Position numbers and translations under genes: made by a program. From Polyangia bacterium (GTDB taxonomy: Bacteria; Myxococcota_A; Polyangia; Palsa-1104; JAEUJZ01): a DNA stretch of 64,000 bases. Below the pieces are notes generated by a model. It saw only the letters and a list, made by a program, of their open reading frames with translations. It had not been told where the DNA came from and made no database searches. Each line of letters starts with the position of its first letter. Position 1 is the first letter of the stretch. Shown piece by piece: positions 10,923-40,477 of the stretch. The stretch is from positions 14,725 to 78,724 of the forward strand of contig JBGAUT010000014.1 in assembly GCA_044228505.1 (NCBI GenBank), in the 5' to 3' direction.

Positions 10923-11669
10923 TTACCTCTTTGAATGGAAGGGTGCGGATGGATGATTGTCTTTCCCAGCACGGACCGAAGCAATCGGGCGAAAGTGGCC
11001 AAGGATCTGCCAACCATCGAGCACGTCTTCCTCGGTAGGAAACGGGCCAATGTTGTGAATCACCAAGGGCAAGCCGCGTGGCCCTTTGCGATCGCTGACC
11101 ACTCCCACGTGTTCTGCGCGGCCGTTATTGTGAAGAGACCACACCAGGATGTCTCCAGGGGCGTAGCTGGTGCGAGCCTCTTGTGTTTCGACCTGACGCG
11201 GCAGAACGCGGGTGTAGGCTTCAAACCAGACAAGGAGCGCCGTAGCGCGGCGGTGATCGATGCTGGCATCAGCACGCTTGCCACCACGTTTGTATGCTCC
11301 CGGACGACGTAGGATGTCCTCATGGACAAGGCGCTGCAGATCAATTCCCACAGCTCGCAAAGCGCGGATCACGACATCGGTACATACTCCGCGTGATGGA
11401 TCCACGTCTCCCCCCGGATAAGAGAGAGCCACGTACTGCGGGTCATAGACGACTCCACGAGTGACCTCTAGCCGGGCACGCTCGACCACGAGCTGGAAAT
11501 CGGGCATCGGCTCGTCGGTACGAACGCTCCCCATCGCGGCGACCGTGGTTCCTGGGGCGGACTGCGCCGACACCGGAGGAGCAGACACAGAGCCCACTGG
11601 GGGGCCTGCATGCACCGTCTCTGTCACACAGAGAACGGCCACCATGGGAATCAATCTACGAAGACGCAT
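10923..11669 (-). CDS. secreted DUF1287-family protein (YijF-like)
   Basis: Signal peptide. Motifs YDPQYVALSYPGGDV and GVCTDVVIRALRAVG are typical of DUF1287. Confidence 0.6.
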   Translation of the reverse strand: MRLRRLIPMVAVLCVTETVHAGPPVGSVSAPPVSAQSAPGTTVAAMGSVRTDEPMPDFQLVVERARLEVTRGVVYDPQYVALSYPGGDVDPSRGVCTDVVIRALRAVGIDLQRLVHEDILRRPGAYKRGGKRADASIDHRRATALLVWFEAYTRVLPRQVETQEARTSYAPGDILVWSLHNNGRAEHVGVVSDRKGPRGLPLVIHNIGPFPTEEDVLDGWQILGHFRPIASVRAGKDNHPSAPFHSKR

Positions 11670-11713
11670 GGAAACCTCTAGCCTTCATATAAGAGTCCTA
11701 CTGGAGTCCTTGG

Positions 11714-13060
11714 TCAAAGAATAGGAACCCCCTTGGGACGGGCGGCAACCACGCGAACAGTCCCCTGATCATTGAGCGGCGCAAACTTGAGACCGGATTC
11801 ATCTCCGCTGTCTGCCACGATGTCATGTGGCCCAAGGATGCCGTCAGGGACTCCGTTCGGTCCGCGATCTTCGACCAAGACCACGATGTGATCCCAGGCT
11901 CGCGGCAGGTTGTCCGCCCCCATGTACTCGACAGCCAGAATGTCGCCGGGTAGCACCTGATGACCCATGCGCAGCGGGGGAATGGAGGCGTGCTCACACT
12001 GGGAAAGTGCCGGTGCCGATCCAGCACACTGATCGACCAGCGTTGGGCCCGCAACTCGCCCAAGGGCATCGATGACTCCACTGACATTGGTGTAGCGGAG
12101 TGTTGGCTTGCCCGCCCGACGAAGCGCACCGACCAGAATGTCCGCGCAGTCTGCACCGACGAAGCGCTCGGTCTGGTTGTGGACACCCTCCCCTGCACTC
12201 CCGAACAGATACGGAACATTGTAAAATGCGGTCAGCCAGCCCAGGAATCCGTCACCTTTTCGGAAGCTGTAGCGGAACACCCGGTCGGAAATGATGCCGT
12301 TCGGGACATCGTCGAGTCCTGGTGTGGAAAGGGGAGCTTCCTGGCCCAAGCGGATGCTCGCCGCCAGTCGCATCGTCCCCAGGTCCTGATGGTCTGCGGG
12401 ACGCGGAGCGACCGACTCCGTAGGGCGGGCATCCGTGACCACCAAACGCAGCGCCCCCACTCCGTCCGCTTCTCCGTCCGCAGAATCGGGACGGGGTACG
12501 ATCGCATGCTCCACGTACTCCATGCGATCGTAGCCAAGCCACTTTCCGTGATGTGGACCGAAGACAACGGCATTGGCGTAGACCCGGACATCCCCATTGG
12601 GAGCCTTGGTATGGACATGCTTCATGCGCGGTTCGATACGCCGCCAAGCCACTGCGAGAGCTGGGCAGCCGCTCGCGCTCCACGACACATGTCCGGGCCG
12701 ACCGTCCTCGCTAAACAGTACCGGGCGACGGTTGAGCGTACCGGGCAGCATCACAAAGACCTCGACCGACTCACCGATGCGGGCGTCAACGGCCTTGGCC
12801 GTAGCACCCTGGTGTCCGCGCACCCGACCTTCCAGCCAAGGGCCGCCACGCAGTGTGCAGGTCGGTGTGGTTGCAGCACTTGCTTCACCCTCCAGCGTCA
12901 GACTTCCCAGCAGCGCGAGCAACAGGCCAATCCCAGTCCAGGAAAGGACAACGGACTTTTTCCACTGAACAAAATCCGATGGCCCATCAACTACCGATTC
13001 GAGCGATGACATGTGCCTGAAAACGTCCATCCGCGAGCAAGGATCTGACATCGCTCCCAT
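11714..13060 (-). CDS. membrane-anchored protein with a C-terminal DUF1287-like domain
   Basis: N-terminal TM helix. The C-terminal GADCADILVGALRRAG and PGDILAVEY...WDHIVVLV blocks parallel the Cys and His blocks of the adjacent DUF1287 protein. Start codon is uncertain. Confidence 0.5.
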   Translation of the reverse strand: MGAMSDPCSRMDVFRHMSSLESVVDGPSDFVQWKKSVVLSWTGIGLLLALLGSLTLEGEASAATTPTCTLRGGPWLEGRVRGHQGATAKAVDARIGESVEVFVMLPGTLNRRPVLFSEDGRPGHVSWSASGCPALAVAWRRIEPRMKHVHTKAPNGDVRVYANAVVFGPHHGKWLGYDRMEYVEHAIVPRPDSADGEADGVGALRLVVTDARPTESVAPRPADHQDLGTMRLAASIRLGQEAPLSTPGLDDVPNGIISDRVFRYSFRKGDGFLGWLTAFYNVPYLFGSAGEGVHNQTERFVGADCADILVGALRRAGKPTLRYTNVSGVIDALGRVAGPTLVDQCAGSAPALSQCEHASIPPLRMGHQVLPGDILAVEYMGADNLPRAWDHIVVLVEDRGPNGVPDGILGPHDIVADSGDESGLKFAPLNDQGTVRVVAARPKGVPIL

Positions 13061-13098
13061 TGTCGGTTCTGTCCAGGCTCGGCCTCGGTATTTGGACC

Positions 13099-13791
13099 TT
13101 AGGGTCTGACCGGTGGACCTTCGAGCGCGAGATCCCCAAGCTGCGCACGCACACGGGCCATAAAGCGCTTACCAGGATCGTCGTGGGTGTTGCGATAGCT
13201 GGGATCATTCTCCAAGTAGTAGGCATGGCCGCGCATCTGATCAGCCTCTTGGTGCCCAATGAGATGCGTGATCGCATAGCGACCAGCGAGGTAGCGAATC
13301 AGTGCCACGTTGGCCGTCACCTGGGCTTCGGTAAGCGGCAGGGTCTTGTCATTGCCCACGTTCTCGATGCCGATGGAGACGTGATTCAGTCCGATGACGT
13401 GACGTGCCATCGTGGTCTCTGGAACCAGTCGATAAATCGTCCCATCTTGATCGATGACAAAGTGCGCCGAAACATTGACTGCGCCGGCCCGCAGCAAGGA
13501 CTTGCGACTTGCCTCTGCTTTCAACCGATTGAAGTACTGCCAGGTGGACTGAAAGGACTGGCCGCCCGTGTAATGAAGCACGATCACACGAGGAGTGATG
13601 CTGGTATCCCGAGCGGCTGCATCTTGGTGAACCCGACGATATTGCAGCGTGAGCTTGACCCGCTCCTCATCGAAGCGGATCGGTCGATCAATGATTACGG
13701 GAGTCACGGATGGCCGCTGCTCCGGTCCAGCCCAGACAGAGCGCAACCCCGATGTCAGCAAAAGTAGCAGTGCGGTGAGAACACGCTTCAC
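13099..13791 (-). CDS. N-acetylmuramoyl-L-alanine amidase (Amidase_2 / PGRP fold)
   Basis: Signal peptide. Motifs VIVLHYTGG, AHFVIDQDGTIYRLVPE and GLNHVSIGIENVG. Confidence 0.75.
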   Translation of the reverse strand: MKRVLTALLLLLTSGLRSVWAGPEQRPSVTPVIIDRPIRFDEERVKLTLQYRRVHQDAAARDTSITPRVIVLHYTGGQSFQSTWQYFNRLKAEASRKSLLRAGAVNVSAHFVIDQDGTIYRLVPETTMARHVIGLNHVSIGIENVGNDKTLPLTEAQVTANVALIRYLAGRYAITHLIGHQEADQMRGHAYYLENDPSYRNTHDDPGKRFMARVRAQLGDLALEGPPVRP

Positions 13792-14002: not shown

Positions 14003-14932
14003 TTAGCGAGCAGGAAGCGGGACTCCCGGCTCACCGAGATAGATTCTGTAGAGATCACCGCTAAGTAGGTTGCTCAAGTACATCCACTCTTCGCCATACG
14101 TACCGCGTCCAACCGCTCCATTGGCGAGCACCGTATCTGGCACCTTGGCCAGCAGCCGATGCGATCTGTCTTGTGCCACGCGATAGACTCCATCGAGCGT
14201 GATGAACAGGTACGCTCCCGAAGCAAGTGTCGCGATGCCATCAACGAAAGCGATATCGGTTGTAAAAGGAACCGGTGCCCCATAGCCGTCCGCTTGCCGT
14301 GGTAGCTGATACACGGTTCGCCCATCCCAAGACGCAACCAGCAAGAACTTGCCATCGGGAGAGAATGCCAAGCCATTGGTATAGGAAATCTGATCGGTGA
14401 CGAGCTTGACTCCCGTGCCATCCGACTCTGCCAGGTAGAGCTTATCGGCCGCAGAATCGGAAAACACCAGTCGATTGTCCGGAGCCACCGCCACAAAGTT
14501 CGTAAGCTTGTATTCGAATGCACCCCCGGCACCTACCAAGATGCTGGTTGCACCCGCCGGAGTGACCCGCCAGATCACAGCCGTCCGCTTCCCATTTACG
14601 ACTCCTTTTCCACAGACCAGGATGTCGCCGTCGGCTCGCACCGCGATTCCCACCGGACTCGGAACATCGGCCACCTTGTGTACCGTCCGATCTGGGAGCA
14701 CTCGCCACAGCGCATCGGCTGCGCCCACGTAGAGCACCGTTTCCCCCGACGGATCTTTGCCAAATGCAATGCCCTCAGTACGTCCAGGCGCAGTGGCAAC
14801 CAACTCGAAGTCACCCACCTGCTGCTGCAGTGAACTCGCGTCCGGCCAAGACATATCGGGAGTACTGACGGAGGACGAAGAACACCCCAAAAGAGCCAGG
14901 GTGGCAGCCACAGCAGTCATGTTGATGCGCAT
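14003..14932 (-). CDS. lipoprotein, SMP-30/gluconolactonase/LRE-like beta-propeller
   Basis: Lipobox LLGCSS. Repeated propeller-blade patterns in the order IAF-DGSG-LY and TNG-AFSPDGK-LLVA. Confidence 0.55.
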   Translation of the reverse strand: MRINMTAVAATLALLGCSSSSVSTPDMSWPDASSLQQQVGDFELVATAPGRTEGIAFGKDPSGETVLYVGAADALWRVLPDRTVHKVADVPSPVGIAVRADGDILVCGKGVVNGKRTAVIWRVTPAGATSILVGAGGAFEYKLTNFVAVAPDNRLVFSDSAADKLYLAESDGTGVKLVTDQISYTNGLAFSPDGKFLLVASWDGRTVYQLPRQADGYGAPVPFTTDIAFVDGIATLASGAYLFITLDGVYRVAQDRSHRLLAKVPDTVLANGAVGRGTYGEEWMYLSNLLSGDLYRIYLGEPGVPLPAR

Positions 14933-15026
14933 CGCGCCGCATCCTATCCCGAACCGCCCACTCCAGCGCAAGTACATCGCAGAATCTGCTTCCGCTCACA
15001 CCCGCCCCCTGCGCAGCAAAGAACCG

Positions 15027-16238
15027 TCAAGAAAGGAAGAGCCGATGGACAAACCACAGTGAGCCCAAGACAGCAGCCACCACAGAAGAAGCTCGTACCA
15101 GCCATTCCAGATCGTTCGCTGGTTCATTCCGAGGGGAATCGATGTGGGCCTTGTGATGCAACAGCCGTCGCCGTGCCAGGTCGACCCGAACGAGCAGAAG
15201 AGGAAAAATGATGAACAGAGCCCCTAAGAAGAGCGCCTGCCCGATCTCTATCCCTACGTTGAATCCAATCAGACTGACGGCTCTGCGCGCTGCGGTGACT
15301 CCCATTTCAGTCATCGCGGAAGCAAAGCCAAGCCCGTGCAAAAGTCCACAGGCAAACACCACCGCGATGCGCCGACTCTGTGACGTCTTGACGCGGCGCA
15401 GGTTGAGAAGGGCCATCACCACAATGCTGGCGGCAATCAGCGGCTCGACGATCCGAGCAGGGGCCTTCGCCCATCCAAGGACTGCGATTGATAGGGTGAT
15501 GCTATGGGCCACTGTAAAGGTCGTCAGTACGGCAAGCCACTGACGCCAGCCGGTGACTCCTAACAGCACGGTCAACAGGAACAGCAAGTGGTCGACACCG
15601 AGTAGGATGTGCTCGATTCCCAGCGCCACGAAGTCCACAAACAGTCTGGCAGGACTGCGGAAAAAGGAGTGCTCTTTGGCGAGCGGGCGGAGCACACCAA
15701 CCTCCGCCGGATCAGAGCCTCGGGTGGCCCGGATCGTGAGCTGTCCCTCTCCATCAGCAGTACCAAACAGATCGGTCACCAGCCGCAACGATTGGGGAGG
15801 CGCAGGGAAGCTGGTCTTTAGGAGTGCCAGGATCTGCTTGGCCCCAGCCTGGCTCGATTCATCGCGCTCGTCATGCTCGGCTCGCAGGTGCACCAGTTCC
15901 TGGACTCCCTCCTTGGCTGCATGGTCTGAGCTACGTCTCAGCATGCCAAGCCAGCCGCGACGGTCGTCCTCGTAAAGGCGAAAGCGCGAACCAACCTGCC
16001 TCTGCAGCTCCGCTTGGTGTCGAAAGACCTCCTGTTCCGACAACCGACCATCCCCATCATCGTCGACTCCGTGGAGTGCAGACACCGGAACGGCGACCAC
16101 CTCGAAGACCGCATTGTCGATGACGTTCAGCGTCCCCTGTTGCGCGGGCATCATGTGCGCAGACGCTGAATCTGCACACAATAGGAGGCTTAGCACCCCA
16201 GCCTGAACCTGCCGATTGGGGGACGCCATGGTATGCAT
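15027..16238 (-). CDS. HupE/UreJ-family membrane protein with an N-terminal EF-hand
   Basis: Signal peptide. EF-hand loop DDDGDGRLSEQEV, then HupE/UreJ_2 signature GIEHILLGVDHLLFLL and multiple TM helices. The ORF runs to 16442 but the start was chosen at MHTMASP. Confidence 0.6.
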   Translation of the reverse strand: MHTMASPNRQVQAGVLSLLLCADSASAHMMPAQQGTLNVIDNAVFEVVAVPVSALHGVDDDGDGRLSEQEVFRHQAELQRQVGSRFRLYEDDRRGWLGMLRRSSDHAAKEGVQELVHLRAEHDERDESSQAGAKQILALLKTSFPAPPQSLRLVTDLFGTADGEGQLTIRATRGSDPAEVGVLRPLAKEHSFFRSPARLFVDFVALGIEHILLGVDHLLFLLTVLLGVTGWRQWLAVLTTFTVAHSITLSIAVLGWAKAPARIVEPLIAASIVVMALLNLRRVKTSQSRRIAVVFACGLLHGLGFASAMTEMGVTAARRAVSLIGFNVGIEIGQALFLGALFIIFPLLLVRVDLARRRLLHHKAHIDSPRNEPANDLEWLVRASSVVAAVLGSLWFVHRLFLS

Positions 16239-16419
16239 GATCGCACGGACTTCGCCGCTGCTCAACAACTGCGGCTCCATCACCCTCCCTGTCCTAGCCG
16301 ACCGGCACGCCTTGCGACGGTACGCTGCGCCTTCAGCCACTCCAGCTTGCGACTTCCCGGCTCGTACGCGATGATCCGGGCGGGTTTTTCTTCGGGGCAT
16401 GCCCCTTGGGAGGTTGGTT

Positions 16420-18093
16420 ATGAATGAGCGCGGTAGTCGCAAGATTCCGGTTACTGAACGGCAGTTCCTGTGGGTTCAAGACGACGACAAGGGCGAGGTA
16501 ACGCTCCATGTTGGTCCAACGATGGTGTCACCGACCGCCGCCGATCGAGTCGTAATCGACGACGGTCAGGGCAGCTTCCGAGAAGACACCTCGGGCCGCC
16601 CCCAAATGATGATCGAAGTCGGCGATCATCAGTACGCCGTGCTGTTCAACCCGCTGCTCGAAAACGACGGCGGTCCCAATGGGCGGTTCCGAGTGGGTCG
16701 CAACGAAGCACGTCCACTCAAGAACGGTACGCGAGCAATGATTCCGGGACCATGCAGTTACTTTCTGCGCCCCGGACAACGCTGCGAGGTCCGCGATGCC
16801 CATGAACTATCTGCGAGTCAGTATCTGGTCGTTAAGGTGTACGGACCCGTCGATCGAACGGCACCCTACTTTGATGTAACGGCACGGTCTGCTGCGATCA
16901 CCCGAGCCACGGCAGAGGCACTCGATGGTCGTCCAACCCCGCTGCCTGAAAAGGGAATCGATCAAGAGCTGAAGCGCGGTCAGCTCATCGTCATTCGCGG
17001 CATCGATACCCAGTTCTACATTCCACCAACCGGCGTCGACATCGTTCCAGATACGTCGGTGGACGAATCGGGTGCCACGGTGAGTGCGACCACGGCACAG
17101 AAGCTGCTCCAGCAGATGCAAGCGCAGCTCACCAAGCCAGTGCTTCCGCCACCGCCACCTACTGCCAAAAAGGGAGCCATCAGCGAAGAAGAACAGCTTG
17201 ATCTGCGCAGCGAGGATGACGAGTCCCCAAGCGATAAAAGTCGATCTCCCAGGCGAGCAGTGGCCCAGTACCAAGCGGAAGCCGCCGCGCAGATGATCGA
17301 CCAGTCCGCACGCACCCGGCAAAGAGTGGCAGCCCCCGCGCCCGTTGCGCCTCAGGCCGGGCCACCGCGTCCAGCGGCGATGCCGCCACCTCCTGCACCC
17401 CCAGTATCCAACAACGCCGGATTTGCCGCACCAACCAACACCGCAGTCACTACCGTGTCTGTGGATGATGTGCTGTCTTCCGATGCACTCCGCAAGGCCA
17501 TCGAAAAAGAGGCACGTCAAGCGCGTCTTATTCGCAGCGCTGTTGTCCTGGGTGAAAAGGAATACTGCGTACTCATCGATCCGGATGGCAAGCGCGAGAT
17601 CAAGGTTGGCCCAGCTCGGGTCTTCCCTGGACCGTATGATACGTTTATGATCAAAGGCTCACGCAACCGTGTCTACGATGCCTATGAGCTTCTGCCGCAG
17701 CGTGCCCTGTGGCTGCGGGTGATTTCGCAGTCCGGACGCGAGGACATGGCCAAGAAGATGCCGCGTGGCGTCGAGTTAGAGAAAGAACAGTACTTCCCTG
17801 GCGATGAGCTGCTGCTGTGCGGAGTGTCCGGCTTCTTCTTTCCATTTAACGAGATCGAAGTCCTGTCCCCTCACACTGGCGAGGCAGTGGTTGGGAACGA
17901 TCACTCCAACGTCTTTATCGAAGCCATCGGAATCGATCAGAAGAGCGGCATCTGGTCACCTTGCGGATTGCGCGTCGCCCATTCCTATGAACTGAGTGTT
18001 CATCATCCATCGGTCATCCACGGCTCTATATCGCACCAATTCTCACCAGCGGTTGATGGCTGGCGCATCGCAACTGCCCTGTCATGCTCTTAG
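16420..18093 (+). CDS. major vault protein (MVP) homologue, N-terminal vault-repeat fragment
   Basis: Three blocks align to the eukaryotic MVP repeat region. [27 protein letters not shown] matches [37 protein letters not shown] matches [64 protein letters not shown] matches [64 protein letters not shown] RBS before the ATG at 16420. The last 47 aa are non-MVP tail after the att core. Confidence 0.7.
   Translation: [557 protein letters not shown]
17941..17953. repeat. left copy of the 13-bp direct repeat AAGAGCGGCATCT (att core)
   Basis: Identical 13-mer at 31311-31323. Flanking imperfect similarity GCCATCGGAAtcgatcag versus GCCATgCATCGGGAA. Confidence 0.5.
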
Positions 18094-18112
18094 GTACTTA
18101 CGGAGGATCACC

Positions 18113-18727
18113 ATGAAGAAACGAGCGCTTCTAGGACGAACGAACCCTAACCGCAGAGATTTACTCAAAGCCGGAGCAGGCATCCTGGGCGGACTGTCCG
18201 CCTGCACGGTGATCGGATCTCTTGGCAGTGCGCTGACCTCGTCGGGATGTGGAGCACTCCGTTTCGATATCAATCAGCCGATCCCCGAACAGAGGATCAT
18301 GGGCAACGTCCTCGCTGGTGTGCTTGGCGCATTCCTGCCCACTCCATTTTCTTTGCCCATCAACCTGGAACAGGAAACCAAGTCACATGGCACCGGCCCT
18401 GCCCAGTCAGCGGGTCTCACCGCACTGTCGTTTAAGCTGACCAACATTCCCAATCCACCGCGCAGTAGCGACAATTTTGACTTTGTCGATCGCATCGAAA
18501 TCTATGTGGAAAGTGTGAAATCTGGCACTGCTCTCACCAAGCAGAAGGTGGCCGATCTGCTGAGCGTTCCAAAGGGAGCGACAAAGCTGAACTTGCAATG
18601 CTATCCCAACGTGGACCTAGTCCCCTACATCAACGAAGGGGCGAGGATCAGCTCGACAGCATCTGGACGTGTTCCGAGCAACGACATCACGTTCGATGGT
18701 CTGGTTACGATCGAAGTACGTGTCTGA
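18113..18727 (+). CDS. Tat-signal lipoprotein of unknown function
   Basis: Twin-arginine motif NRRDLLKAG and lipobox LSAC. GGAGGA RBS before the ATG at 18113. Confidence 0.6.
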   Translation: MKKRALLGRTNPNRRDLLKAGAGILGGLSACTVIGSLGSALTSSGCGALRFDINQPIPEQRIMGNVLAGVLGAFLPTPFSLPINLEQETKSHGTGPAQSAGLTALSFKLTNIPNPPRSSDNFDFVDRIEIYVESVKSGTALTKQKVADLLSVPKGATKLNLQCYPNVDLVPYINEGARISSTASGRVPSNDITFDGLVTIEVRV

Positions 18728-18803
18728 CGAATCGGGTTCTCACACCTCGGCTAGGTCAGCCACCGAAGACTCCGTGATACTCTGACAACACGGAGAAAGT
18801 CTG

Positions 18804-19997
18804 ATGCAGCATCTAGTGCCTCCCAAGCTGGCCAATCTCTTACATCCAAATGCGAACCATGTAGAGGCCAAGCCACCGACTCTGACCGAGCATCACAAAG
18901 CTGCCGATGGTCTTCATCCAGCAACTGGTGGCATCAATGCTCAAGCTCACCAGGGAACCGTGTCACCCGAGGCCAATCAGCAAGCGGCCAAGACGTTGGA
19001 GCACTTTGCGGACCCGAAGCCAGCAGGGGCTGGCGCACAAGTCGCTCCCAAGACCGCGGGGCTGTATCCTGGAGTGACCGATCTAACCGGAACGTACGGA
19101 AAGCTCGCAGCAGGAAAGCGAGCCGATACGCAAGGTGTCGTCCTTCACCGTACAGAGACGGCTACCGCACAAGGTGCCCTCAACGCATACAATTCACGGA
19201 TCAAAAATGGCGAGCATGTTGGTGCGCAGTACTTGATCGATGAAGTGGGCAAGACCAGTCTGGTCACGCCTGCGGACTCGCTCACGTACCACTCGAAGGG
19301 ATTCAACAGCTCTACCGTTGGCGTCGAAGTAGTTGGTCCCGGAGTTCACTTGGATCGCTCCGGGAAGGGCAAGTCTGTGCGGCAGCAAGTCACGGATCTC
19401 AATCTGTCCCCAGAATTTCAATCACGACTCCTTGGCTACAAGGACAAGCAGTTAGACAACGTCGTCAAATGGAATGGCGACACGATCTACGAAGACATCA
19501 GCGGCAAGCAGAAGCGCTCGGTGTGGAACCTCTCGAATCAGCTTGCGAAGACCTATAATTTGGATATGTCGTCGCTGTCTCATCACGGAAAGGATGAATC
19601 GGGAAGCAACAACTACTCTCCGCAGAACTTTCCGGACTTCTCTGCTCATGAACACTTGAATCCCAAGGCGCTCGGCGAAGGCGAAGCCATCACAGAGTTC
19701 CTGCAAGCGCGTCAGCAGTATCCCCAGATGGTTGCAGCAGCCCAAGAGAAGCTGGCCAAAGCGCAGGCAGCCGGTGCAACTCCGGAACAACTCAAGCAGC
19801 AGCAAGCCATCTTGCAGCGTGAGCAAGCGACTTTGGGAGCGCTGAATCTCGATGGCGATCCTCATGAACAGGAACTCCTGGCGGCAGAACAGAAGTCGGG
19901 TAAGCCAGGCGAAGCTACACAGCGCGAAAACCTCCGTACGGAGTACTATGACGACTTTTATGACCGGATGGCCGAGCTAAAGGGAATCGTCAAGTAG
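18804..19997 (+). CDS. Amidase_2/PGRP-domain protein without a signal peptide, with a coiled-coil C-terminus
   Basis: Motifs VVLHRTE, GAQYLIDEVGKTSLV, VGVEVVG and FSAHEHL resemble the N-acetylmuramoyl-L-alanine amidase fold. About 110 aa of disordered N-terminus. Visibly lower GC than surrounding genes. Confidence 0.55.
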   Translation: MQHLVPPKLANLLHPNANHVEAKPPTLTEHHKAADGLHPATGGINAQAHQGTVSPEANQQAAKTLEHFADPKPAGAGAQVAPKTAGLYPGVTDLTGTYGKLAAGKRADTQGVVLHRTETATAQGALNAYNSRIKNGEHVGAQYLIDEVGKTSLVTPADSLTYHSKGFNSSTVGVEVVGPGVHLDRSGKGKSVRQQVTDLNLSPEFQSRLLGYKDKQLDNVVKWNGDTIYEDISGKQKRSVWNLSNQLAKTYNLDMSSLSHHGKDESGSNNYSPQNFPDFSAHEHLNPKALGEGEAITEFLQARQQYPQMVAAAQEKLAKAQAAGATPEQLKQQQAILQREQATLGALNLDGDPHEQELLAAEQKSGKPGEATQRENLRTEYYDDFYDRMAELKGIVK

Positions 19998-20033
19998 ACC
20001 CCCACTTGCCGAGGATATCCACCGAGGGCAGGT

Positions 20034-20717
20034 ATGATTGACAGAGAGCGAGAAGACGTACTGCTGAAGCAGGCCGTGGCACGAGGACTCCTCGATGCAG
20101 AGGATGTCTCGACCTTGCGAAATATGCCTCAGGCAGTGGGCTCGACCCTACGTTTTGGACCCCGTCTTGACCGATTGGTGGAGCAGGGAAAGCTATCAGA
20201 AGGACAGCTTGAACGACTCTCTGCAGAACTGGCAGCGTTTGAACGTACACTCGACGGGAGAGCGGAGTCTGTCTCGTCCGCTTCACCAACAGAAAGAGTC
20301 TCGGTTCAGCTACCGCCGTGGCTTGTACAGTGGTCCCAGTACGAGGTGTTGGGACTGCTTGGTCAAGGCGGCATGGGCATGGTGTATCGAGCCCGCGACC
20401 GGCGCTTGTCAAGAGAGGTCGCACTGAAGTTCATCAGCGTAACTGATGATCAGCTTCGCAAACGATTCCTGACCGAAGCCCGTGCCCAGGCCAGGCTCAA
20501 TCACGAGTTCATCTGCAAAGTCTTCGAAGTAGGAGAAGTTCAGGGACACCCCTACATCGCCATGGAGTTGGTGCAGGGCAAACCGCTGTCAACGATACAC
20601 CGCAGCCTCAATCGCGAACAAAAGCTCACCCTCGTGAGAGACATTTCCCATGCAGTCCACACCGCCCACAGCTTGGGAATCATCCACCGAGACTTAAAGC
20701 CGGCCAATGTGTATTGA
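20034..20717 (+). CDS. Ser/Thr protein kinase, N-terminal fragment (subdomains I-VIb), interrupted
   Basis: GQGGMGMVY glycine loop, VALK lysine motif and HRDLKPANV catalytic loop. The frame stops immediately after the catalytic loop. Confidence 0.7.
   Translation: MIDREREDVLLKQAVARGLLDAEDVSTLRNMPQAVGSTLRFGPRLDRLVEQGKLSEGQLERLSAELAAFERTLDGRAESVSSASPTERVSVQLPPWLVQWSQYEVLGLLGQGGMGMVYRARDRRLSREVALKFISVTDDQLRKRFLTEARAQARLNHEFICKVFEVGEVQGHPYIAMELVQGKPLSTIHRSLNREQKLTLVRDISHAVHTAHSLGIIHRDLKPANVY
20699..20710. repeat. 12-bp direct repeat GCCGGCCAATGT (second copy at 23658-23669) flanking the insertion in the kinase gene
   Basis: Identical 12-mers encode PANV at the end of the N-terminal fragment and again at the start of the C-terminal fragment. 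The flanking sequence is imperfectly similar. Confidence 0.45.
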
Positions 20718-20911
20718 TTGATTTTGTAAATTCAGCGTGGGGCAAGACATACCGTTCGCAGCGTTGGGAATGTCGGTGGGAAGGTGGCATTGGGGTTGGA
20801 TGTCATGAGTTCTGCCACTCAGTGGCGACCGGAGGCTGCTCTGCCATCGAGGAGCTGTACTATCAAGAGCCGCGTCTCTCCACTTTTGATATAGTTGGTG
20901 TAGGGGGTTCC

Positions 20912-21313
20912 ATGCGTGTTATGTCGGGTCGTGTTGGACGTGTGATAAGTACGCTGGCGGTGTTCGTCCTGCTACCGCTGTCTGCCAAAGCTGAGCCCGT
21001 TGGGAACGTGGTAAACAGCGCCAAAGCCGTGGCCACCAAGGTTGTCCCTCTCGCCAAAAAGGCAGCACCAGTGGCGAGCAAAGCCGTTCAGACCGTGCGC
21101 GGCAACGGCAGTGCACCGGCCACCGCACCTCAGCAGGCACAAGCTGCGCCCTCTGGCCCCGCGCAGCCACAGGCCAGTCCGTCCATTCAGGATCAGGCCG
21201 TGGGAGTCCTACGCAGCGCGGCGGCAGGAGTGAAAGGCCCAGCCGCTTCCCCGCCAGCCTCCGCACCGAGTCCTGCTCCTCGCGGCGCACCTCCGGGCGC
21301 ACCTCCCGGATAG
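20912..21313 (+). CDS. small secreted Ala/Pro-rich protein
   Basis: Signal peptide MRVMSGRVGRVISTLAVFVLLPLSAKA followed by a low-complexity A/P/Q-rich region. Confidence 0.4.
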   Translation: MRVMSGRVGRVISTLAVFVLLPLSAKAEPVGNVVNSAKAVATKVVPLAKKAAPVASKAVQTVRGNGSAPATAPQQAQAAPSGPAQPQASPSIQDQAVGVLRSAAAGVKGPAASPPASAPSPAPRGAPPGAPPG

Positions 21314-21347
21314 AAACGACCACAACGGCATCGAGTCCCCAGCCCGA

Positions 21348-22106
21348 CTACGGAACAAACGGAGTCCACATCGAGGCGAGCCAGCTCTGCGGACGATGGT
21401 TGGATATTCCCAGCGGATACTCTTTACCAGTAGGTACCTCATGCGTGCCAAACACGATGTCCAGCCAGGGCGCAAGGTTGCCAAAGTTGGTGAGTCCGTG
21501 ACCTCGTGCGTGATGCCAGTGGTGCAGCTCGGGAGACCCCAGTAGGTAGCGAAGCGGACCGATTGGAAGTCGAACATTCGAGTGAATGAAGATCGCCCAC
21601 ATACCGCGAAACACCGCGAGCCCAGCCAGTCCTCCCATTGGCACGCCAAGGAGAATGGCCGGTAGATTCTGCATCAGCTGAGTCAGCATCCCGTCCACAG
21701 GGTGCTCTCTGTGTGCGGCCAGCCAGTCGAGATGCTCGCTGCTGTGGTGAACCGAATGAAATCGCCACAGCAAGTTCGAGGCATGACACGCACGGTGAAA
21801 CCAATAGACCAGCACATCGCCGAGCACCACTGAGCCAAGGAACAAGACGATCTTCGGCGCTGAAATGAAAGGCTTCGTTCCCAAGTGCGCGGTGACAAAT
21901 CGCAACAGAGAGATCGACAGCACATTCCACAGAAGGTACTGACCGAAAAAGTACGCCGCATCCGTGACCAAGGCTGGACGAAAAATCGGCTGTTGCCGAG
22001 CAGGAAAGAGTCTCTCTAACGGAACAAAGACCGCAATCAAAACCACCAAGCTCGCCAGCGCGGCGCTCAGCCAAGACTGTGCAGACGAGATCAGCTCGCT
22101 CATCAC
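21348..22106 (-). CDS. fatty acid hydroxylase / sterol desaturase superfamily membrane enzyme
   Basis: His boxes HRACHA, HSVHHSSEH and HHWHHA, with multiple TM helices. Overlaps the upstream small gene by 4 bp. Confidence 0.65.
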   Translation of the reverse strand: MMSELISSAQSWLSAALASLVVLIAVFVPLERLFPARQQPIFRPALVTDAAYFFGQYLLWNVLSISLLRFVTAHLGTKPFISAPKIVLFLGSVVLGDVLVYWFHRACHASNLLWRFHSVHHSSEHLDWLAAHREHPVDGMLTQLMQNLPAILLGVPMGGLAGLAVFRGMWAIFIHSNVRLPIGPLRYLLGSPELHHWHHARGHGLTNFGNLAPWLDIVFGTHEVPTGKEYPLGISNHRPQSWLASMWTPFVP

Positions 22107-22423
22107 TTGGCCTGTTGCTGAACTGGTTCCGGAGTCTTCCTGGCAGATGGCGACGGGAGGAAGACGGCTGCAGATTTGGATGCCCCCATGAATCGATTGG
22201 GAATCTCTGGCTCCGGTGAAGCGGGTGCTGGGGGTGGCGGGGGTGGAGCAGGCTGCACAGTCGGGGGTGGCGATGGCTTGACAGACTGCGGCGGAGCCGA
22301 CTGGGACTTCCCGTCAGACTGCTTCGTACTACAACCCGAATCCTCACGCGATGCATTGCTGGTGAGCATCGCGACGACTCCAACTGCAAAGACCAAGGAC
22401 AGCGCTCTGAGAACGGTTCGCAT
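22103..22423 (-). CDS. small secreted proline-rich protein
   Basis: Signal peptide and a PPPPPPAP tract. Its stop overlaps the downstream start (ATGA). Confidence 0.4.
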   Translation of the reverse strand: MRTVLRALSLVFAVGVVAMLTSNASREDSGCSTKQSDGKSQSAPPQSVKPSPPPTVQPAPPPPPPAPASPEPEIPNRFMGASKSAAVFLPSPSARKTPEPVQQQAK

Positions 22424-22477
22424 GACAGCTCCGAGTTAGTGAATGAGACAGTGAACGCGTTGACCAAAGGATTGGGT

Positions 22478-23482
22478 CTAGTGATTCCTCCGCACCAGTC
22501 CGCGCAGACGGTGAACATCGATCATTCGCGACATGCCTTCGCCTCCCGCAGTCGCCCAGGAAGCAAAGATCTCCGCACAATGAAGAGCCCATGATAGCAG
22601 AGTCTGCCGAATCTGTTGATCGGACGCGCTACCACCCATCTGAGCGGCTGCTGACTCACAGATTTGCATCCGGGCAGTCATGCCACCATCCGGATCATCC
22701 GGATCGTCTTCAGGATAGGCAGCAGAAAGCAGAGCTTTGGCTTCCTCCTGCTGATCCTTGCGCAGTAGCTCGATGAGTTGATCGCGCACGGCGTGATAGC
22801 GCTCCTTGGCAGCCACCGCAGCTCGATCCATCCTGGCCAGCACTGCGCGAGCAATCTGCAGGGTCATCGCGGCCGATTCGCCCTTCACCACTGACACTTT
22901 CTGGCAGATACGCTCGACCCGTTGACGAAGGTGCTGTCCGGACTCCGCCACCGCGTAGAGCGCCGTCAAAGCGACTGCAAGCTCCGCTCCCGATGGATCC
23001 CCATCCAGGTGACGCGCAATCGCGTGAAGTGAGGCAGCGCGCAGCTCACGCGGCACAGTGGGCATACGTGCCACCAGTTGAAGCGTCAGAAACTGCGTCG
23101 GTTCTTCGGTTCGAGAGAGCGCATCACGAAGCTCTGCAACAAGATTGGGCCGCACAGCAAGCCGTGTCTGTGCCACTCGCAGAGCCACCGGATGCGTACA
23201 GGACAACACCGTACCGAGAACCTCCGCAAGCGTTGCATCCGTAGGAAGACTTGCCGCCTTGCGCACCTGCTGCGAGGCCTCTTCGGAAAGCTCCAGCCGC
23301 AGCAGGCCGATCGGACCAGACTCCCCTGCCACAGGCTGTCCCGCGACAATGGTGCCGCAAAGAGAGCAACACAACAGCACCAAGTCGGGTGCCGACACTT
23401 GAAGCTGTAGTCCTGTCGCGGGGCAAGCACACGCTAGCGGCGTATCTAACGACAGGATCTCAGCAGCGGGGGATGCAGACAT
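22478..23482 (-). CDS. hypothetical protein
   Basis: Long ORF with no recognisable motif. The ORF runs to 23584 but the start was placed at MSASPAAE. Confidence 0.4.
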   Translation of the reverse strand: MSASPAAEILSLDTPLACACPATGLQLQVSAPDLVLLCCSLCGTIVAGQPVAGESGPIGLLRLELSEEASQQVRKAASLPTDATLAEVLGTVLSCTHPVALRVAQTRLAVRPNLVAELRDALSRTEEPTQFLTLQLVARMPTVPRELRAASLHAIARHLDGDPSGAELAVALTALYAVAESGQHLRQRVERICQKVSVVKGESAAMTLQIARAVLARMDRAAVAAKERYHAVRDQLIELLRKDQQEEAKALLSAAYPEDDPDDPDGGMTARMQICESAAAQMGGSASDQQIRQTLLSWALHCAEIFASWATAGGEGMSRMIDVHRLRGLVRRNH

Positions 23483-23634
23483 ACTCTGGTTATCATACCC
23501 CTTTCGAGAAAAACAGATCGACGATTCAGCCAGTCCTTCACCCAGTGCTCGCGTCCGTGAGTACCCGCCTCCGCTTTGCCGCACAGTACCATTTCCCCAC
23601 CTCTTTCAGTCGGCCTCAGGGAAGAGTGAAGGCT

Positions 23635-24297
23635 ATGCTCGACTTGGTCGAGATTGAGCCGGCCAATGTCATGATCGTAGAAAAGGAGGATGGCACCCTC
23701 CGTCCAGTGGTCATGGACTTTGGACTCGCACGAGATCAGAGCAGTGAAGAGCACCTCACCATGACCGGGATGGTCATGGGCACTCCTGCCTATATGTCTC
23801 CTGAACAAGCCCAAGGAGAGATCAGCCGGATTGATCGTCGCAGCGATGTCTACAGCCTGGGAGCCATGCTCTACGAGCTGCTGTCTGGTCAACTTCCCTT
23901 TGCGGGAGCAACAACGGTGGCGATGATCCTGCAGGTCATTCAGCAGGAGCCGCCCCCACTGCGCAAAGTCAACGCAGAGATTCCCATTGATCTAGAAACC
24001 ATCGTTGCCAAAGCGATGGCCAAGGAGATTCAGCGGCGCTACGACACGGCCCGTGCTTTCGCAGAGGATCTCGAGCGATTCCTAAACGGAGAGCCGATCC
24101 TCGCACGCAAAGCGTCGATACTTTATGTGGCGCACCCGAAGCCAATATCGCGCCGTCCCAAACCAACCATCACTCCTGCCGGTGGGATGTATGCGGGAAT
24201 CGGTCATGTCAGAAAACGGACCAGGCCCTGCGAGCGGTTGCCAATCAAGGCGCTGGAACTTCCTTTACGGACACTTCAGCAGTGGAGCAATCGGTGA
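23635..24297 (+). CDS. Ser/Thr protein kinase, C-terminal fragment (subdomains VII-XI)
   Basis: MDFGLAR (the DFG motif) and GTPAYMSPEQ (the APE motif) follow PANVMIVEK. AAGG sits 4 nt before the ATG at 23635. The open frame further upstream overlaps the opposite-strand gene and is judged spurious. Confidence 0.65.
   Translation: MLDLVEIEPANVMIVEKEDGTLRPVVMDFGLARDQSSEEHLTMTGMVMGTPAYMSPEQAQGEISRIDRRSDVYSLGAMLYELLSGQLPFAGATTVAMILQVIQQEPPPLRKVNAEIPIDLETIVAKAMAKEIQRRYDTARAFAEDLERFLNGEPILARKASILYVAHPKPISRRPKPTITPAGGMYAGIGHVRKRTRPCERLPIKALELPLRTLQQWSNR
23658..23669. repeat. second copy of the 12-bp direct repeat GCCGGCCAATGT
   Basis: See 20699-20710. Confidence 0.45.
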
Positions 24298-25785
24298 GAC
24301 CGGAGCCACCCCCATTGCAGAAGTCATGGTGTCGTAGCTCGACAGGTTACTGGTTAAGACTCCCACTATCTCTGCGTAGGTCTGATTGAGCTTGTTGGCT
24401 GTTGAGCTCTCTGCAACGCACAGAAACTTGGTGGTGCCGCACAGAGGAATCTCTTCACAGCCAGGATTCGCCGGGGCCGCCACCTTTAGTTCCAGCGTTC
24501 CGTATAAGGCGCGTCCGTCGACCATCACCAGATCGACATCGACAGGCGAAGCGGAAAGCAGTGCATCATAGGGTTGTCCGGCATCACCCCGGAACAGTAC
24601 CAAATCTGCACGCTTGCCAACTTCGAGGGTACCAAGCGCAGCGTCCACTCCCAGCGCACGAGCCGCATCTACCGTCACCATTTCAAACAATCGGCGCGTA
24701 GTAAGAAGTCCGTTAAACTTACTGTCGCTCACCTGCCGTGCAACCTTCAATTCATCCAGCAGATTGACACTGCCTCCCAAAGACCAGTCTGGCGCAAGCG
24801 CAATGGTATTCACCCCCGCCATCATCGCCAGATCAATCCGAGTGGTGTCATTGTACAAAAACAGATTCGACTTCGGTGACCAGATGAGCTTCATTCCGGC
24901 AATGCCCATCTTGGTAAACTCGGGAGCCCCGAGCGCGGTACCATGGACGATGGCCGTTTGAGGGGCCAACAGACAGCCACTGGCGCGACTCTCTAGCGTG
25001 GCAAACTCATTTCTGGCCGTGGCATTGATACCTTCGGCCACATGCACGGCGTAGGCATTGGCTGTACCGGCTGTAAACGCATTGCAAATGGTTTGTGCGG
25101 CGGCGGAGTTGTTTGGGACAGAAATGGCCGTTCGCAATCGATCGACTCCGAGATCATTGCGCGAAGTATCAATCGTCCTTGCCAAGGACTCATAACAAGC
25201 CAGCTCCACCGCCCCAGGAGCGAGCGTGAACGAAGTGGTGCCGGCAATCAGGGCCTTGATCTCTGCGTATTTGTCGATCTCACACCGCAGATCCACCGGT
25301 GAGGTGACGTCTTTGTTGAGATACTGTTTGGCGTCCAGAACCTGCTGATAGCGAACGTCGGAGGTCCAGTCATTGTGACTGCCGTAGAACCTGCCCGGAC
25401 TCCAGTCTGCTTCATCGAAAATGTTAAAAAGACCATGATTATGGCCATCGAGCATTCCCGGCATGATCACCCCAGAGGTAGTGATCACCGTGGCACCGCT
25501 TGCGGCGGGTAGAGACGAACACGAGTCCGCTACGCAGGTGATGTTCGCTCCTTCGACCAGCAGTTCCCCTCGCAGGGGACCACCTGGAGTAAGCATCACT
25601 CCGCGCAGAAGGAATCGATCGGTAGCCCCAGGCACAATCGAGGGAGGCAGCCAGTTCCCGCCATCTTGAGTCATGGACATCATGTCCGCTCCCAGATCGC
25701 TCTCTGTGCTTCCATCGCTGCGACAGCCCAAGTAGGCCAAACATCCAGATAACAGTAGTGCCTGGATCTGCTGCTGCCAACGCAT
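24265..25785 (-). CDS. amidohydrolase-family lipoprotein
   Basis: Lipobox LSGCLAYLGC and metal-binding motif PGMLDGHNH. Confidence 0.7.
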   Translation of the reverse strand: MRWQQQIQALLLSGCLAYLGCRSDGSTESDLGADMMSMTQDGGNWLPPSIVPGATDRFLLRGVMLTPGGPLRGELLVEGANITCVADSCSSLPAASGATVITTSGVIMPGMLDGHNHGLFNIFDEADWSPGRFYGSHNDWTSDVRYQQVLDAKQYLNKDVTSPVDLRCEIDKYAEIKALIAGTTSFTLAPGAVELACYESLARTIDTSRNDLGVDRLRTAISVPNNSAAAQTICNAFTAGTANAYAVHVAEGINATARNEFATLESRASGCLLAPQTAIVHGTALGAPEFTKMGIAGMKLIWSPKSNLFLYNDTTRIDLAMMAGVNTIALAPDWSLGGSVNLLDELKVARQVSDSKFNGLLTTRRLFEMVTVDAARALGVDAALGTLEVGKRADLVLFRGDAGQPYDALLSASPVDVDLVMVDGRALYGTLELKVAAPANPGCEEIPLCGTTKFLCVAESSTANKLNQTYAEIVGVLTSNLSSYDTMTSAMGVAPVSPIAPLLKCP

Positions 25786-26079
25786 GGTTCCCCCTCTTGC
25801 TCTGGGTTGTGCGCAGCCGAACTGCCTGCCTCCTAGAGCGCCCCAGGATCGCTCTGCGCGATTACGCCGAATCTCTCACAGTAGCCGGAGTCCTTTCGAT
25901 CTGGCGAGAGCAAACCGCACACCCTACACTCTATGGTCGGCGGCTCATACTCCGCCTACAGCTGGTACCGCTACAGAGCCCCTTGCTCCTTGCTCTATGA
26001 GTAGCGGTCAGCGGGAGCATGCCTCGCTCTACAAAATCAGTATCGAAGCCTTACTCCTCGACGACATATTGGAGAGAAC

Positions 26080-27255
26080 ATGACCAGTAAGTACGTACTC
26101 GTGGCTCCGCTCGTCCTTCTTACGGCGGTCGGATGTCGTAATGAAAACACCGACAATCAGTCCGACCTCATGATGACCCCGGATGACATGTCTGTGGCAG
26201 AAGATCTGAGCGGTTTGCCGGCAGACCTTTCCGCACCCGACCTAACTGGTGCCGATCTGCTGCCTCCGCCACCGCCCGCAGATTTCTTTGTGGTCCGAGT
26301 GGGAGACGGAACCGCCGCACTCACCAGTGCCGCTACCGCAACGTTCCTTGAGCGTCGCAAACTCAGTGATGGAAGTCTGGTCGGCACAGCATTGGCTCTG
26401 CCCACTGCCGTCAGCGGCACCAATCGCATCTTGACCATGGGAGGTAGCTCGACCGGCGAGGGAGGACTTAGTCGTTCGGTCGATGGTCGCTATCTGCTGG
26501 TAGCCGGCTACGATGCCGCCGTGGGAACTGCCTCCGTTGCGGGTACGGCATCCGCCACCACCAGCCGCGTCATCGGACGCATTGATAGCACCGGCACGAT
26601 CGACACCAGCACAGCCGGTGACTTTCTCAGCGGCAACTCCATCCGCAGCGCCAGCAGCAACGATGGAAAAGACCTCTGGGCCGCAGGTGCAGGAGGAATT
26701 TTCTACACAACCTTTGGGAGTACTGCCAAGCCGACCTCTCTGCTCACGACCAACTTCCGTTGGCTGCACGTATTTGGCACGCAACTGTACGGTAGCAGTG
26801 GTTCCGGCACCAACGCCGGTATCAACAGCGTCGGAAGCGGCACGCCGATGACCACAACCACCGCGACTCTGCTAAATGGCTTTGCGGCTCAGATCGGTTC
26901 GTCTCACTACGGCTTCGTTGGATTCGACACAGATGGTCTGGCTGGAATCGACATTCTATACGTTGCCGACGACCGGGCGGCCGGTTCCGGCGGCGGAATT
27001 CAGCGATGGAAGCTAAACGGAGCCACCTGGACACTCCAGGGGACGATGGTCAAGAACTTAACCGCAGGAGTGCGCGGACTGACCGGCTATCAGCAAGGCA
27101 ACAACTCCGTGCTGTTCGCCACCACCGCTGAAGTTCCAGCGCGTATCGTTCGATTCACCGATGACGGCACCGCGATTGATATGCTGACTCCTACGGCCCT
27201 GGCCACAGCGTCAAACAACACCGCGTATCGCGGAATCGCGCTGGCACCGCAGTAA
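26080..27255 (+). CDS. lipoprotein, Gly/Ser/Thr-rich, unknown function
   Basis: Lipobox LTAVGC. No recognisable catalytic motifs. Confidence 0.55.
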   Translation: MTSKYVLVAPLVLLTAVGCRNENTDNQSDLMMTPDDMSVAEDLSGLPADLSAPDLTGADLLPPPPPADFFVVRVGDGTAALTSAATATFLERRKLSDGSLVGTALALPTAVSGTNRILTMGGSSTGEGGLSRSVDGRYLLVAGYDAAVGTASVAGTASATTSRVIGRIDSTGTIDTSTAGDFLSGNSIRSASSNDGKDLWAAGAGGIFYTTFGSTAKPTSLLTTNFRWLHVFGTQLYGSSGSGTNAGINSVGSGTPMTTTTATLLNGFAAQIGSSHYGFVGFDTDGLAGIDILYVADDRAAGSGGGIQRWKLNGATWTLQGTMVKNLTAGVRGLTGYQQGNNSVLFATTAEVPARIVRFTDDGTAIDMLTPTALATASNNTAYRGIALAPQ

Positions 27256-27344
27256 CCCACACCACTATCGGAGCGCCACTTCCCCGGCTCGACGCGACTT
27301 CGCTGGGGAACACGCAAGCCACTTCTCGACGGCTTGGTGATGAT

Positions 27345-28505: not shown

Positions 28506-28544
28506 GGTCGATTGCCCTCTCGGGGAATCGTATCGGAAACGAGA

Positions 28545-40039: not shown

Positions 40040-40109
40040 CTCGGCACAGAGAGCGAACCACTCATACTGGAATCCACGTTCGATGAACGATCCCCAAGGA
40101 GACCCATCC

Positions 40110-40466: not shown

Positions 40467-40477
40467 GCGGAGGACCC

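Follow-up and report, generated by a model that had tools for sequence, protein, structure and literature searches.

An Amidase_2-fold protein encoded beside a receptor kinase on a small integrative element of a Polyangia bacterium, a candidate cell-wall effector

Introduction

Why would an amidase-like protein with no visible export signal be carried by mobile DNA, and what is the lipoprotein encoded beside it for? This question is raised by a 64,000-nucleotide stretch of the genome of a Polyangia bacterium (GenBank assembly GCA_044228505.1, contig JBGAUT010000014.1, positions 14,725 to 78,724), hereafter the window, in which an open reading frame (ORF) at 18804-19997, here called the amidase, follows a small gene encoding a putative lipoprotein with a twin-arginine translocation (Tat) motif. 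An earlier, sequence-only reading of this DNA had proposed that the two genes, found next to an integrase island, were either a peptidoglycan-hydrolysing effector and its periplasmic immunity partner or an endolysin-like module, and had considered a signal-less amidase in such a place atypical of housekeeping cell-wall enzymes.

The best explanation overall, which we hold with moderate confidence, is that the ORF encodes a zinc-amidase-fold protein of a small family, carried as cargo of an amidase-kinase-integrase element and likely acting as an exported cell-wall effector. The amidase, a transmembrane Ser/Thr receptor kinase and an integrase are the constant genes of this element of 5.8-6.5 kb, and the lipoprotein is a variable accessory. 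Loci and contigs from other assemblies are designated by L numbers, and the features of the window are listed in Table 1.

Results

Predicted fold and catalytic residues of the amidase

Pfam detected an Amidase_2 domain (PF01510) at residues 108-254 of the amidase, scoring 39.3 bits where the cutoff is 26 (E 1e-9). A structural model was built with AlphaFold2 (AF2) on an alignment of 38 homologues, with a mean predicted local distance difference test score (pLDDT) of 82 and a predicted template modelling score (pTM) of 0.78. The modelled protein consists of a disordered region (residues 1-~85), a core (residues ~90-293) that holds an insertion of ~100 amino acids, and a five-helix C-terminal domain (residues 294-397). 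The pLDDT was above 90 for most of residues 85-397 and below 50 at residues 1-79, which are thus predicted to be disordered, save for a short helix at residues 55-66; the first ~80 residues also varied among the 38 aligned homologues. The disordered N-terminus described by the sequence-only reading is therefore retained, at a length of ~80-85 amino acids rather than ~110, and the C-terminus, first taken for a coiled coil, is predicted to be helical, its five helices forming a bundle or a coiled-coil-like region. No N-terminal hydrophobic segment was visible, in agreement with the earlier statement that the protein has no signal peptide.

When the model was compared with the Protein Data Bank (PDB) using Foldseek, all 22 matches at E <= 1e-3 were Amidase_2 enzymes, AmiE and XlyA among them, and peptidoglycan recognition proteins (PGRPs) appeared just above that threshold. 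The top matches, with a probability of 1.0, E-values of 4e-5 to 6e-4 and template modelling (TM) scores to the target of 0.5-0.73, were S. aureus AmiA, T7 lysozyme, the endolysins Ts2631, PlyL and LysC, and AmpD. A profile of the family found nothing among PDB sequences at E <= 0.01, the best matches being Ts2631 and T7 lysozyme (E 0.15-0.25, N-lobe only); the amidase sequence is too diverged, and the solved amidases were reached by fold search only. PADLOC and NCBIfam gave no match for the amidase. With a Pfam score above threshold and agreement between AF2 and Foldseek, the model shows an Amidase_2/PGRP fold for ORF 18804-19997, and the motifs by which this core had first been recognized proved to be real and conserved.

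The residues H115 (VVLHRTE), E175 (VGVEVVG), H282 (AHEHL), K288, G291, E292 and E294 were invariant in 38 out of the 38 aligned homologues, and the catalytic residues were also kept in a 34%-identical relative from Holophagales. In a MAFFT alignment to T7 lysozyme, H115, H282 and K288 corresponded to His17, His122 and Lys128, respectively, and an hhalign comparison with AmpD matched GAQYLID to SAHCLIR, and E175 to the Glu in IGIELEG. The invariant E292 lies 10 residues after H282; the Asp zinc ligand of AmpD stands at the same H+10 spacing. In the proposed active site, H115 and H282 would bind zinc, probably together with E292, E175 would serve as the general base, and K288 as the transition-state residue. 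The conservation of the catalytic residues across phyla argues that the chemistry has been retained, and the protein is likely to be a catalytically competent N-acetylmuramoyl-L-alanine amidase.

A small family with toxin-like relatives

Database searches returned 40 homologues of the amidase of ~390 amino acids, with 46-93% identity, all from metagenomes or from Haliangium/Polyangia-like metagenome-assembled genomes (MAGs). In an exhaustive profile search of 1.84 billion representatives, only 38 sequences were found at E <= 1e-30, many of which were 600-900 amino acids long with the amidase module at their C-terminus. Judged from these sequences, the family is very small and lineage-specific, and is limited to Polyangia except for distant relatives with a toxin architecture. 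Ten of the long relatives were scanned for domains: eight carried an N-terminal eCIS_core domain (DUF4157), seven of these together with one to three LysM domains, and the other two were a LysM-only protein and a subtilase fusion. LysM binds peptidoglycan. The DUF4157/LysM/Amidase_2 architecture was also present at loci from Acidobacteriota and Holophagales (L028 and L029), and the fusion relatives were 34-38% identical to the window amidase over residues ~70-396, helical tail included. An N-terminal DUF4157 followed by a C-terminal toxin is the architecture of toxins associated with extracellular contractile injection systems (eCIS; Geller et al. 2021, PMC8213781). In Acidobacteriota, Holophagales and metagenomes, the module of amidase and helices forms the C-terminal domain of DUF4157(+LysM) proteins.

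Most family members were chromosomal stand-alone genes. Those with 57-64% identity had unrelated neighbours, with no adjacent kinase or lipoprotein, and the neighbours at 16 homologue loci were mutually unrelated (among them an FG-GAP protein, MutL, RNase T, PhoD, a TonB receptor and a polyketide synthase). Two MAGs each encoded two members of the family, on separate contigs, and no relatives of the amidase were found in the 2.9 million contigs of IMG/VR.

Taken together, the DUF4157 relatives, the lack of an export signal, the variable N-terminus, the MAGs with two members and the lack of phage relatives best support an exported cell-wall effector. Such a protein would reach the walls of other cells by a non-Sec route (a contractile injection particle, a type VI secretion system (T6SS), vesicles, or lysis-dependent release) and would act in antagonism or predation rather than in recycling; its N-terminus, variable and disordered but for one short conserved helix, may be a recognition or loading region. 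A predatory lifestyle is attributed to this bacterial group, and is consistent with an effector. The effector half of the earlier proposal is thereby strengthened.

Several observations nonetheless count against an exported effector. Secretion-system markers were sought, and no secretion or injection genes (such as those for sheath, tube or baseplate) were found among the ORFs of the 64-kb window scanned with Pfam, nor within 10 kb of the DUF4157 fusions at L028 and L029. The window amidase carries neither DUF4157 nor LysM, Amidase_2 being the sole domain found in it; it is therefore the module, and not this protein, that has the hallmark of eCIS-associated toxins. A periplasm-acting toxin used on kin normally needs an immunity gene, and no conserved one was found. 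Moreover, the amidase lies immediately upstream of the kinase gene with a gap of 36 bp in every variant of the element, a constant linkage for which a pure effector model offers no explanation. Finally, the column of the third zinc ligand of T7 lysozyme, Cys130, is occupied by Leu, Met or Ile in the amidase family, and E292 is a putative replacement ligand judged from its spacing alone.

The main rival to an exported effector is a cytoplasmic AmpD-like or sensor protein coupled to the kinase, which would process or bind muropeptides and pass cell-wall status on to the co-transcribed receptor kinase, or be regulated by it. Besides the missing export signal, the AmpD-like motifs of the N-lobe and the AmpD-like position of E292, this role would fit the fixed amidase-kinase order, which is found in all element variants and also in a sister lineage (72-73% identity; L002, L016 and L017), where a lipoprotein-amidase-kinase-4HBT thioesterase cluster with the same 36-bp gap is chromosomal, with no integrase within 10 kb. 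We nevertheless consider it unlikely: muropeptide-recycling synteny of the ampG/nagZ type was found at none of the amidase homologue loci examined, two MAGs hold two copies each where a recycling amidase of the AmpD type would be present about once per genome, the 57-64% homologues have no kinase beside them, and the fusion of relatives to LysM and DUF4157 points to an extracytoplasmic target. The earlier view that this is not a housekeeping AmpD-like amidase thus agrees with the loci examined.

The lipoprotein is separable from the amidase

The lipoprotein had 29 homologues (48-99% identity), of which 25 retained the RR motif, the four without it being the most distant. In the window protein, this motif is part of NRRDLLK at residues 14-20. 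The cysteine C46 (SSGC/GALRFD), which follows a small-residue lipobox, was invariant in the family, whereas C31 of "LSAC", which the sequence-only reading had taken for the lipobox, was shared with the closest relatives only. The Tat motif of that reading therefore stands, with the lipobox moved to C46, and both Tat export and lipidation may be inferred from these motifs. The AF2 model of the mature part was a beta-sandwich or jelly-roll (pLDDT 67.5), for which Foldseek returned only generic or viral jelly-rolls (TM 0.3-0.4), and no function could be assigned from these; Pfam, NCBIfam and PADLOC gave no match.

The lipoprotein gene corresponded exactly to a presence/absence segment of 634 bp that contains the gene with its ribosome-binding site, from 19 bp before the ATG to the stop codon, without flanking repeats. 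A 93% relative (L005) aligned to window positions 17537-18093 and then directly to 18728-20056 (junction at L005:556-558). Overall, the gene was present in the window lineage and in the sister lineage, and absent from L004 (amidase 85% identical) and from L005 and L015 (92-93%).

These data bear on the proposal that the amidase is a periplasm-acting toxin that the Tat lipoprotein neutralizes in the periplasm of the producer. The two genes are adjacent and co-oriented, 76 bp apart, a periplasmic or envelope location is predicted for the lipoprotein, and the adjacency recurs in the sister lineage, with a T6SS VipA gene ~7 kb away. Against this, L004, L005 and L015 are otherwise the same element and carry the amidase without the lipoprotein; a tblastn search found no lipoprotein beside the amidase at the loci of the 57-64% homologues; and lipoprotein homologues with 69% and 53% identity (L051-L054) have a subtilase or a YknX_C-like protein as neighbour and lack an amidase in their vicinity. 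The lipoprotein also lies upstream rather than downstream of the putative toxin, and the lack of a PADLOC or Pfam match offers it no support. Since each gene family occurs without the other, an obligate effector-immunity pairing is not borne out. The lipoprotein is probably not an immunity partner, so this half of the earlier proposal was dropped as improbable, and an independent envelope function would be its most likely role.

In the sister lineage, the T6SS sheath gene VipA/TssB, probably together with tssC, was located at L002:3-1825, ~7 kb upstream of the lipoprotein-amidase-kinase-4HBT cluster, and a sigma-54 activator and three unrelated genes lie between the sheath gene and the amidase cluster. 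Tae enzymes of T6SS are peptide-bond endopeptidases whose immunity genes are obligate partners. The window pair resembles Tae/Tai pairs in placing a signal-less wall hydrolase beside a small periplasm-targeted protein, with a T6SS sheath gene nearby in the sister lineage; it differs from them in that the Tae fold is unlike Amidase_2 and the lipoprotein partner is dispensable.

Peptidoglycan binding or lysis as alternative roles

The replacement of the T7 Cys130 position family-wide raises the alternative that the protein lost catalysis together with this ligand and became a peptidoglycan- or muropeptide-binding module, like the non-catalytic PGRPs of animals. We rate this as quite improbable, because no variation was seen in the two His ligands, the AmpD-type Glu base or the catalytic Lys, nor in a GEGE motif that offers an acidic third ligand. 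An endolysin-like module, by which the element would lyse its host for release with a signal-less amidase as phages do, finds some support in the phage endolysins and T7 lysozyme among the best structural matches, in weak PHROG "amidase, lysis" matches (E 2e-3) and in the location of the gene on an integrase element, but is very improbable and did not hold as the second half of the earlier proposal, given that genes for a holin, capsid, packaging or replication are all missing from the 5.8-6.5-kb element, that most family members are stand-alone chromosomal genes, and that the lack of relatives in IMG/VR argues against a phage endolysin.

An integrative element inside a vault-protein gene

The element that carries the exported-effector candidate interrupts a gene for a protein similar to the major vault protein (MVP), at codon 514/515. 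Identical 13-bp cores flank the element, and the MVP-like frame resumes at the right one (KSGI/YVRDL...). When the two halves were rejoined across one copy of the 13-mer, an open frame of 977 amino acids was obtained (...GIDQKSGI/YVRDLTTGE...), for which more than 100 intact Polyangia homologues of 910-990 amino acids were found, with up to 89% identity at 99% coverage. The tyrosine integrase of the element, the sole integrase recognizable in the window, matched Pfam Phage_integrase (E 2e-23) and PHROG phrog_1 (E 5e-63).

Two circular contigs joined both element ends across one copy of the core. The first, L007, is 6,497 bp long with an end overlap of 30 bp, is 99.2-99.8% identical to the window, and contains the integrase, the lipoprotein, the amidase and an intact kinase of 1,038 amino acids. 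The second, L004, is 5,882 bp long with an overlap of 55 bp, and contains the integrase, the amidase and the kinase, without the lipoprotein. Moreover, GTCATCCA, the core of TCATCCA-type repeats, was found at 18013-18020, 31183-31190 and 31194-31201, and in the same arrangement in L004; these repeats, located on both arms of attP, are read as putative arm-type sites. An exact search for the empty outer attB in metagenome contigs of the Joint Genome Institute (JGI) gave 0 matches. The integrase, the identical cores, the circular forms and the intact homologues of the target together indicate a classical tyrosine-recombinase integrative element inside a conserved host gene.

The description of the pair as mobile cargo is thus upheld, with the difference that it sits inside the element and not next to it; the integrase seems distant from the pair because the element holds ~6.9 kb of additional, nested DNA. 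The lower GC content reported earlier is also real, being 54.7% for the lipoprotein gene and 55.4% for the amidase gene, compared with a window mean of 58.6% and with 59.1% in the neighbouring host gene; the dip is modest and common to the whole element core (54.6-57.7%).

A kinase gene split by nested segments

Compared with the kinases of L007, L004 and the sister lineage, the window kinase was present as four collinear pieces (K1 to K4) cut by three inserts, segments b, c and d. Its first piece ends inside the catalytic loop, HRDLKPANV. PADLOC matched the kinase to its PD-T4-6 and MAD6 models through the generic kinase domain only.

Each of the three segments is flanked by direct repeats of kinase sequence of 8-13 bp, and scans with Pfam, PADLOC, NCBIfam and PHROG detected no recognizable recombinase in any of them. 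The cargo of segment b comprises a small secreted protein, a fatty-acid hydroxylase, a 106-amino-acid protein and a protein of 334/368 amino acids without assignment; segment c carries an amidohydrolase (- strand) and a lipoprotein of 391 amino acids (+ strand), and segment d a single 4HBT thioesterase gene. Segments b and c are absent from L007 and L004, and all three are absent from L007. The split kinase was not an assembly artefact, a cause that was ruled out both by the recurrence of the junctions in independent assemblies from ENA, JGI and Logan (L006, L008, L014 and L030-L050) and by the length of the repeats, which at 8-13 bp are shorter than any assembler k-mer.

Circular contigs of segment b, 2,959 bp long, were found in L037 and L038 (Logan SRR32051689 and SRR34385852); they match window positions 20698-23669 and have exactly the predicted attP-like junction, and L007 carries the empty site that matches this circle. 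Segment b therefore excises precisely, though without a recognizable recombinase. For segment c, contigs break at the junctions (L040 and L050), and an exact search for the junction of a circle in the JGI metagenome contigs gave 0 matches. L006/L041 lack segment d while being 99.7-99.8% identical elsewhere; L014 and L042-L048 have it. The orthologue of the 4HBT gene of segment d lies downstream of the intact kinase and in the same orientation in L002 (13021-13521), L016 and L017, whereas in the window it is inverted within the kinase; when segment d was compared with these sister-lineage loci, the coding region alone was homologous, and the donor was not identified.

Strains with 99.9% identity to the window contain a further element, e, which is inserted at the kinase's HRD codons, 5 bp upstream of segment b (window ~20682-20692), with the core ATCCACCG(G/A)GA. 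The left junction of e is covered by L009 (2767-3316) and L015 (11891-16684), and its right junction by L033 (2633-3502) and the end of L030. The right end of element e encodes a tyrosine integrase of its own (PHROG integrase, E 1e-21), which had no significant similarity to the outer integrase beyond box I, so the two are different recombinases.

At their right ends, segments b, c and d aligned in three blocks with matched spacing (TTCCCC ... GGGAA ... CTCGAC ... core). At the left, b, c, d and e have in common a CGTCGAG-like box and two GGGAA(W) boxes spaced by roughly one helical turn, at 50-70 bp from the core. A search of b, c and d for terminal inverted repeats or ends of the transposon type gave local alignments no better than those of shuffles, as did pairwise comparison of the ends; a sequence model of the common right ends, run on the window and on 12 loci, detected no additional copies; and the short motifs CCCCACCTC and SGGGGAAR were not enriched. 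From the end blocks common to b, c, d and e, we infer that b, c and d may be non-autonomous, integrase-less members of the e family that are mobilized in trans, a proposal that comes from short motifs. The outer element would then be the first layer of a hierarchy of excisable DNA, with the kinase as the landing pad of a second family (e autonomous; b, c and d trans-mobilized), a possibility that we put forward tentatively.

The 8-mer GGGAATCG occurred 9 times in the window, compared with 2.4 expected, and 8 of the 9 sites were within the 17-kb stretch 14644-31269. Some of these sites lie within segments c and d, ~50-60 bp from their left ends, and within the outer element, ~45 bp from its right end.

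Table 1. Positions of the amidase, the element that carries it, the nested segments and an Amidase_2 gene outside the element, in window coordinates.
Feature	Position	Strand	Remarks
Amidase ORF (Amidase_2/PGRP fold, predicted)	18804-19997	+	397 amino acids
Accessory Tat-type lipoprotein (predicted)	18113-18727	+	204 amino acids from ATG; RR at residues 15-16, lipobox C46
Presence/absence segment, 634 bp	18094-18727	+	exactly lipoprotein gene and ribosome-binding site; no flanking repeats
MVP-like gene, N-terminal half (codons 1-518)	16399-17953	+	rebuilt frame
attL core AAGAGCGGCATCT, 13 bp	17941-17953	+	within codons 515-519 of MVP-like gene
attR core AAGAGCGGCATCT	31311-31323	+	MVP-like frame resumes
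MVP-like gene, C-terminal half	31311-32702	+	Pfam Vault_3, MVP_shoulder
Tyrosine integrase, outer element	30051-31304	-	417 amino acids
Kinase piece K1, residues 1-~226 of 1038	20034-20710	+	tblastn with intact L002 kinase; Pkinase profile 1-129
Kinase piece K2, rest of kinase domain	23657-24132	+	tblastn; Pkinase profile 124-254
Kinase piece K3, transmembrane helix and first part of periplasmic helical domain	27343-28471	+	tblastn
Kinase piece K4, C-terminal end	29188-30054	+	tblastn
Segment b, 2,959 bp repeat-to-repeat	20711-23656		AGCCGGCCAATGT (13-bp) at 20698 and 23657
Segment c, ~3.2 kb	24133-27342		ATGTGGCG at 24125 and 27343
Segment d, 716 bp	28472-29187		ATTGTTCGCAA at 28461 and 29188
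4HBT thioesterase gene of segment d	28545-29042	-	
Second Amidase_2 protein	13099-13791	-	with signal peptide; E 2e-27; outside element

Other genes of the window

A second Amidase_2 protein was encoded outside the element, in a row of genes on the - strand (10923-13791) that also includes a protein of 448 amino acids without assignment and a DUF1287 protein; this row looks like an ordinary periplasmic amidase cluster. At 33546-41080, directly downstream of an EF-hand gene, we observed multihaem cytochrome genes (MtrC/MtrF-like domains, cytochrome c7, and NapC/NirT), which suggest a capacity for extracellular electron transfer in this Polyangia-like organism.

Discussion

In host-gene-splitting elements such as skin/sigK, SPbeta/spsM, nifD and hupL, a tyrosine-integrase element lies in the middle of a coding sequence between short core repeats, and its precise excision restores the frame; the outer element described here has the same organization, and the integrity of the MVP-like gene could be controlled by its excision. 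Compared with the "regulated gene integrity" elements (Mageeney et al. 2020, PMC7192596), it is very small and devoid of genes for phage functions or conjugation, and three recombinase-less segments split its own kinase gene. Nested element-in-element configurations are rare but known.

If the proposed hierarchy is correct, excision would switch the integrity of the kinase, and excision of the outer element that of the MVP-like gene. Two purposes are then conceivable: a cascade of regulated gene integrity in a myxobacterium, or a way of silencing, by insertion, a kinase-based function that belongs to a rival mobile element. The nested, partly integrase-less segments that split the kinase are more novel than the amidase itself, and the 6.5-kb element with its excisable cargo would offer a naturally occurring system, documented in metagenomes, in which to study nested site-specific recombination and how integrase-less cassettes are mobilized.

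As regards the amidase, its predicted fold is shared with the Amidase_2/PGRP amidases T7 lysozyme, AmpD, PlyL and staphylococcal AmiA/AmiE. It has both zinc His residues of T7 lysozyme, with the catalytic Lys at H+6, and the general-base Glu of AmpD, and differs from the known enzymes at the Cys/Asp third-ligand position, as well as by the insertion in its core, its disordered N-terminus of ~85 amino acids and its C-terminal domain of 100 amino acids. It defines an uncharacterised, very small branch of Amidase_2 in which the third-ligand position is unusual and a helical tail is dedicated to the domain. Members of this branch appear to serve as free proteins in predatory Polyangia and, in DUF4157 toxins, as the warhead, which makes the window protein a candidate prey-lysing or antibacterial enzyme.

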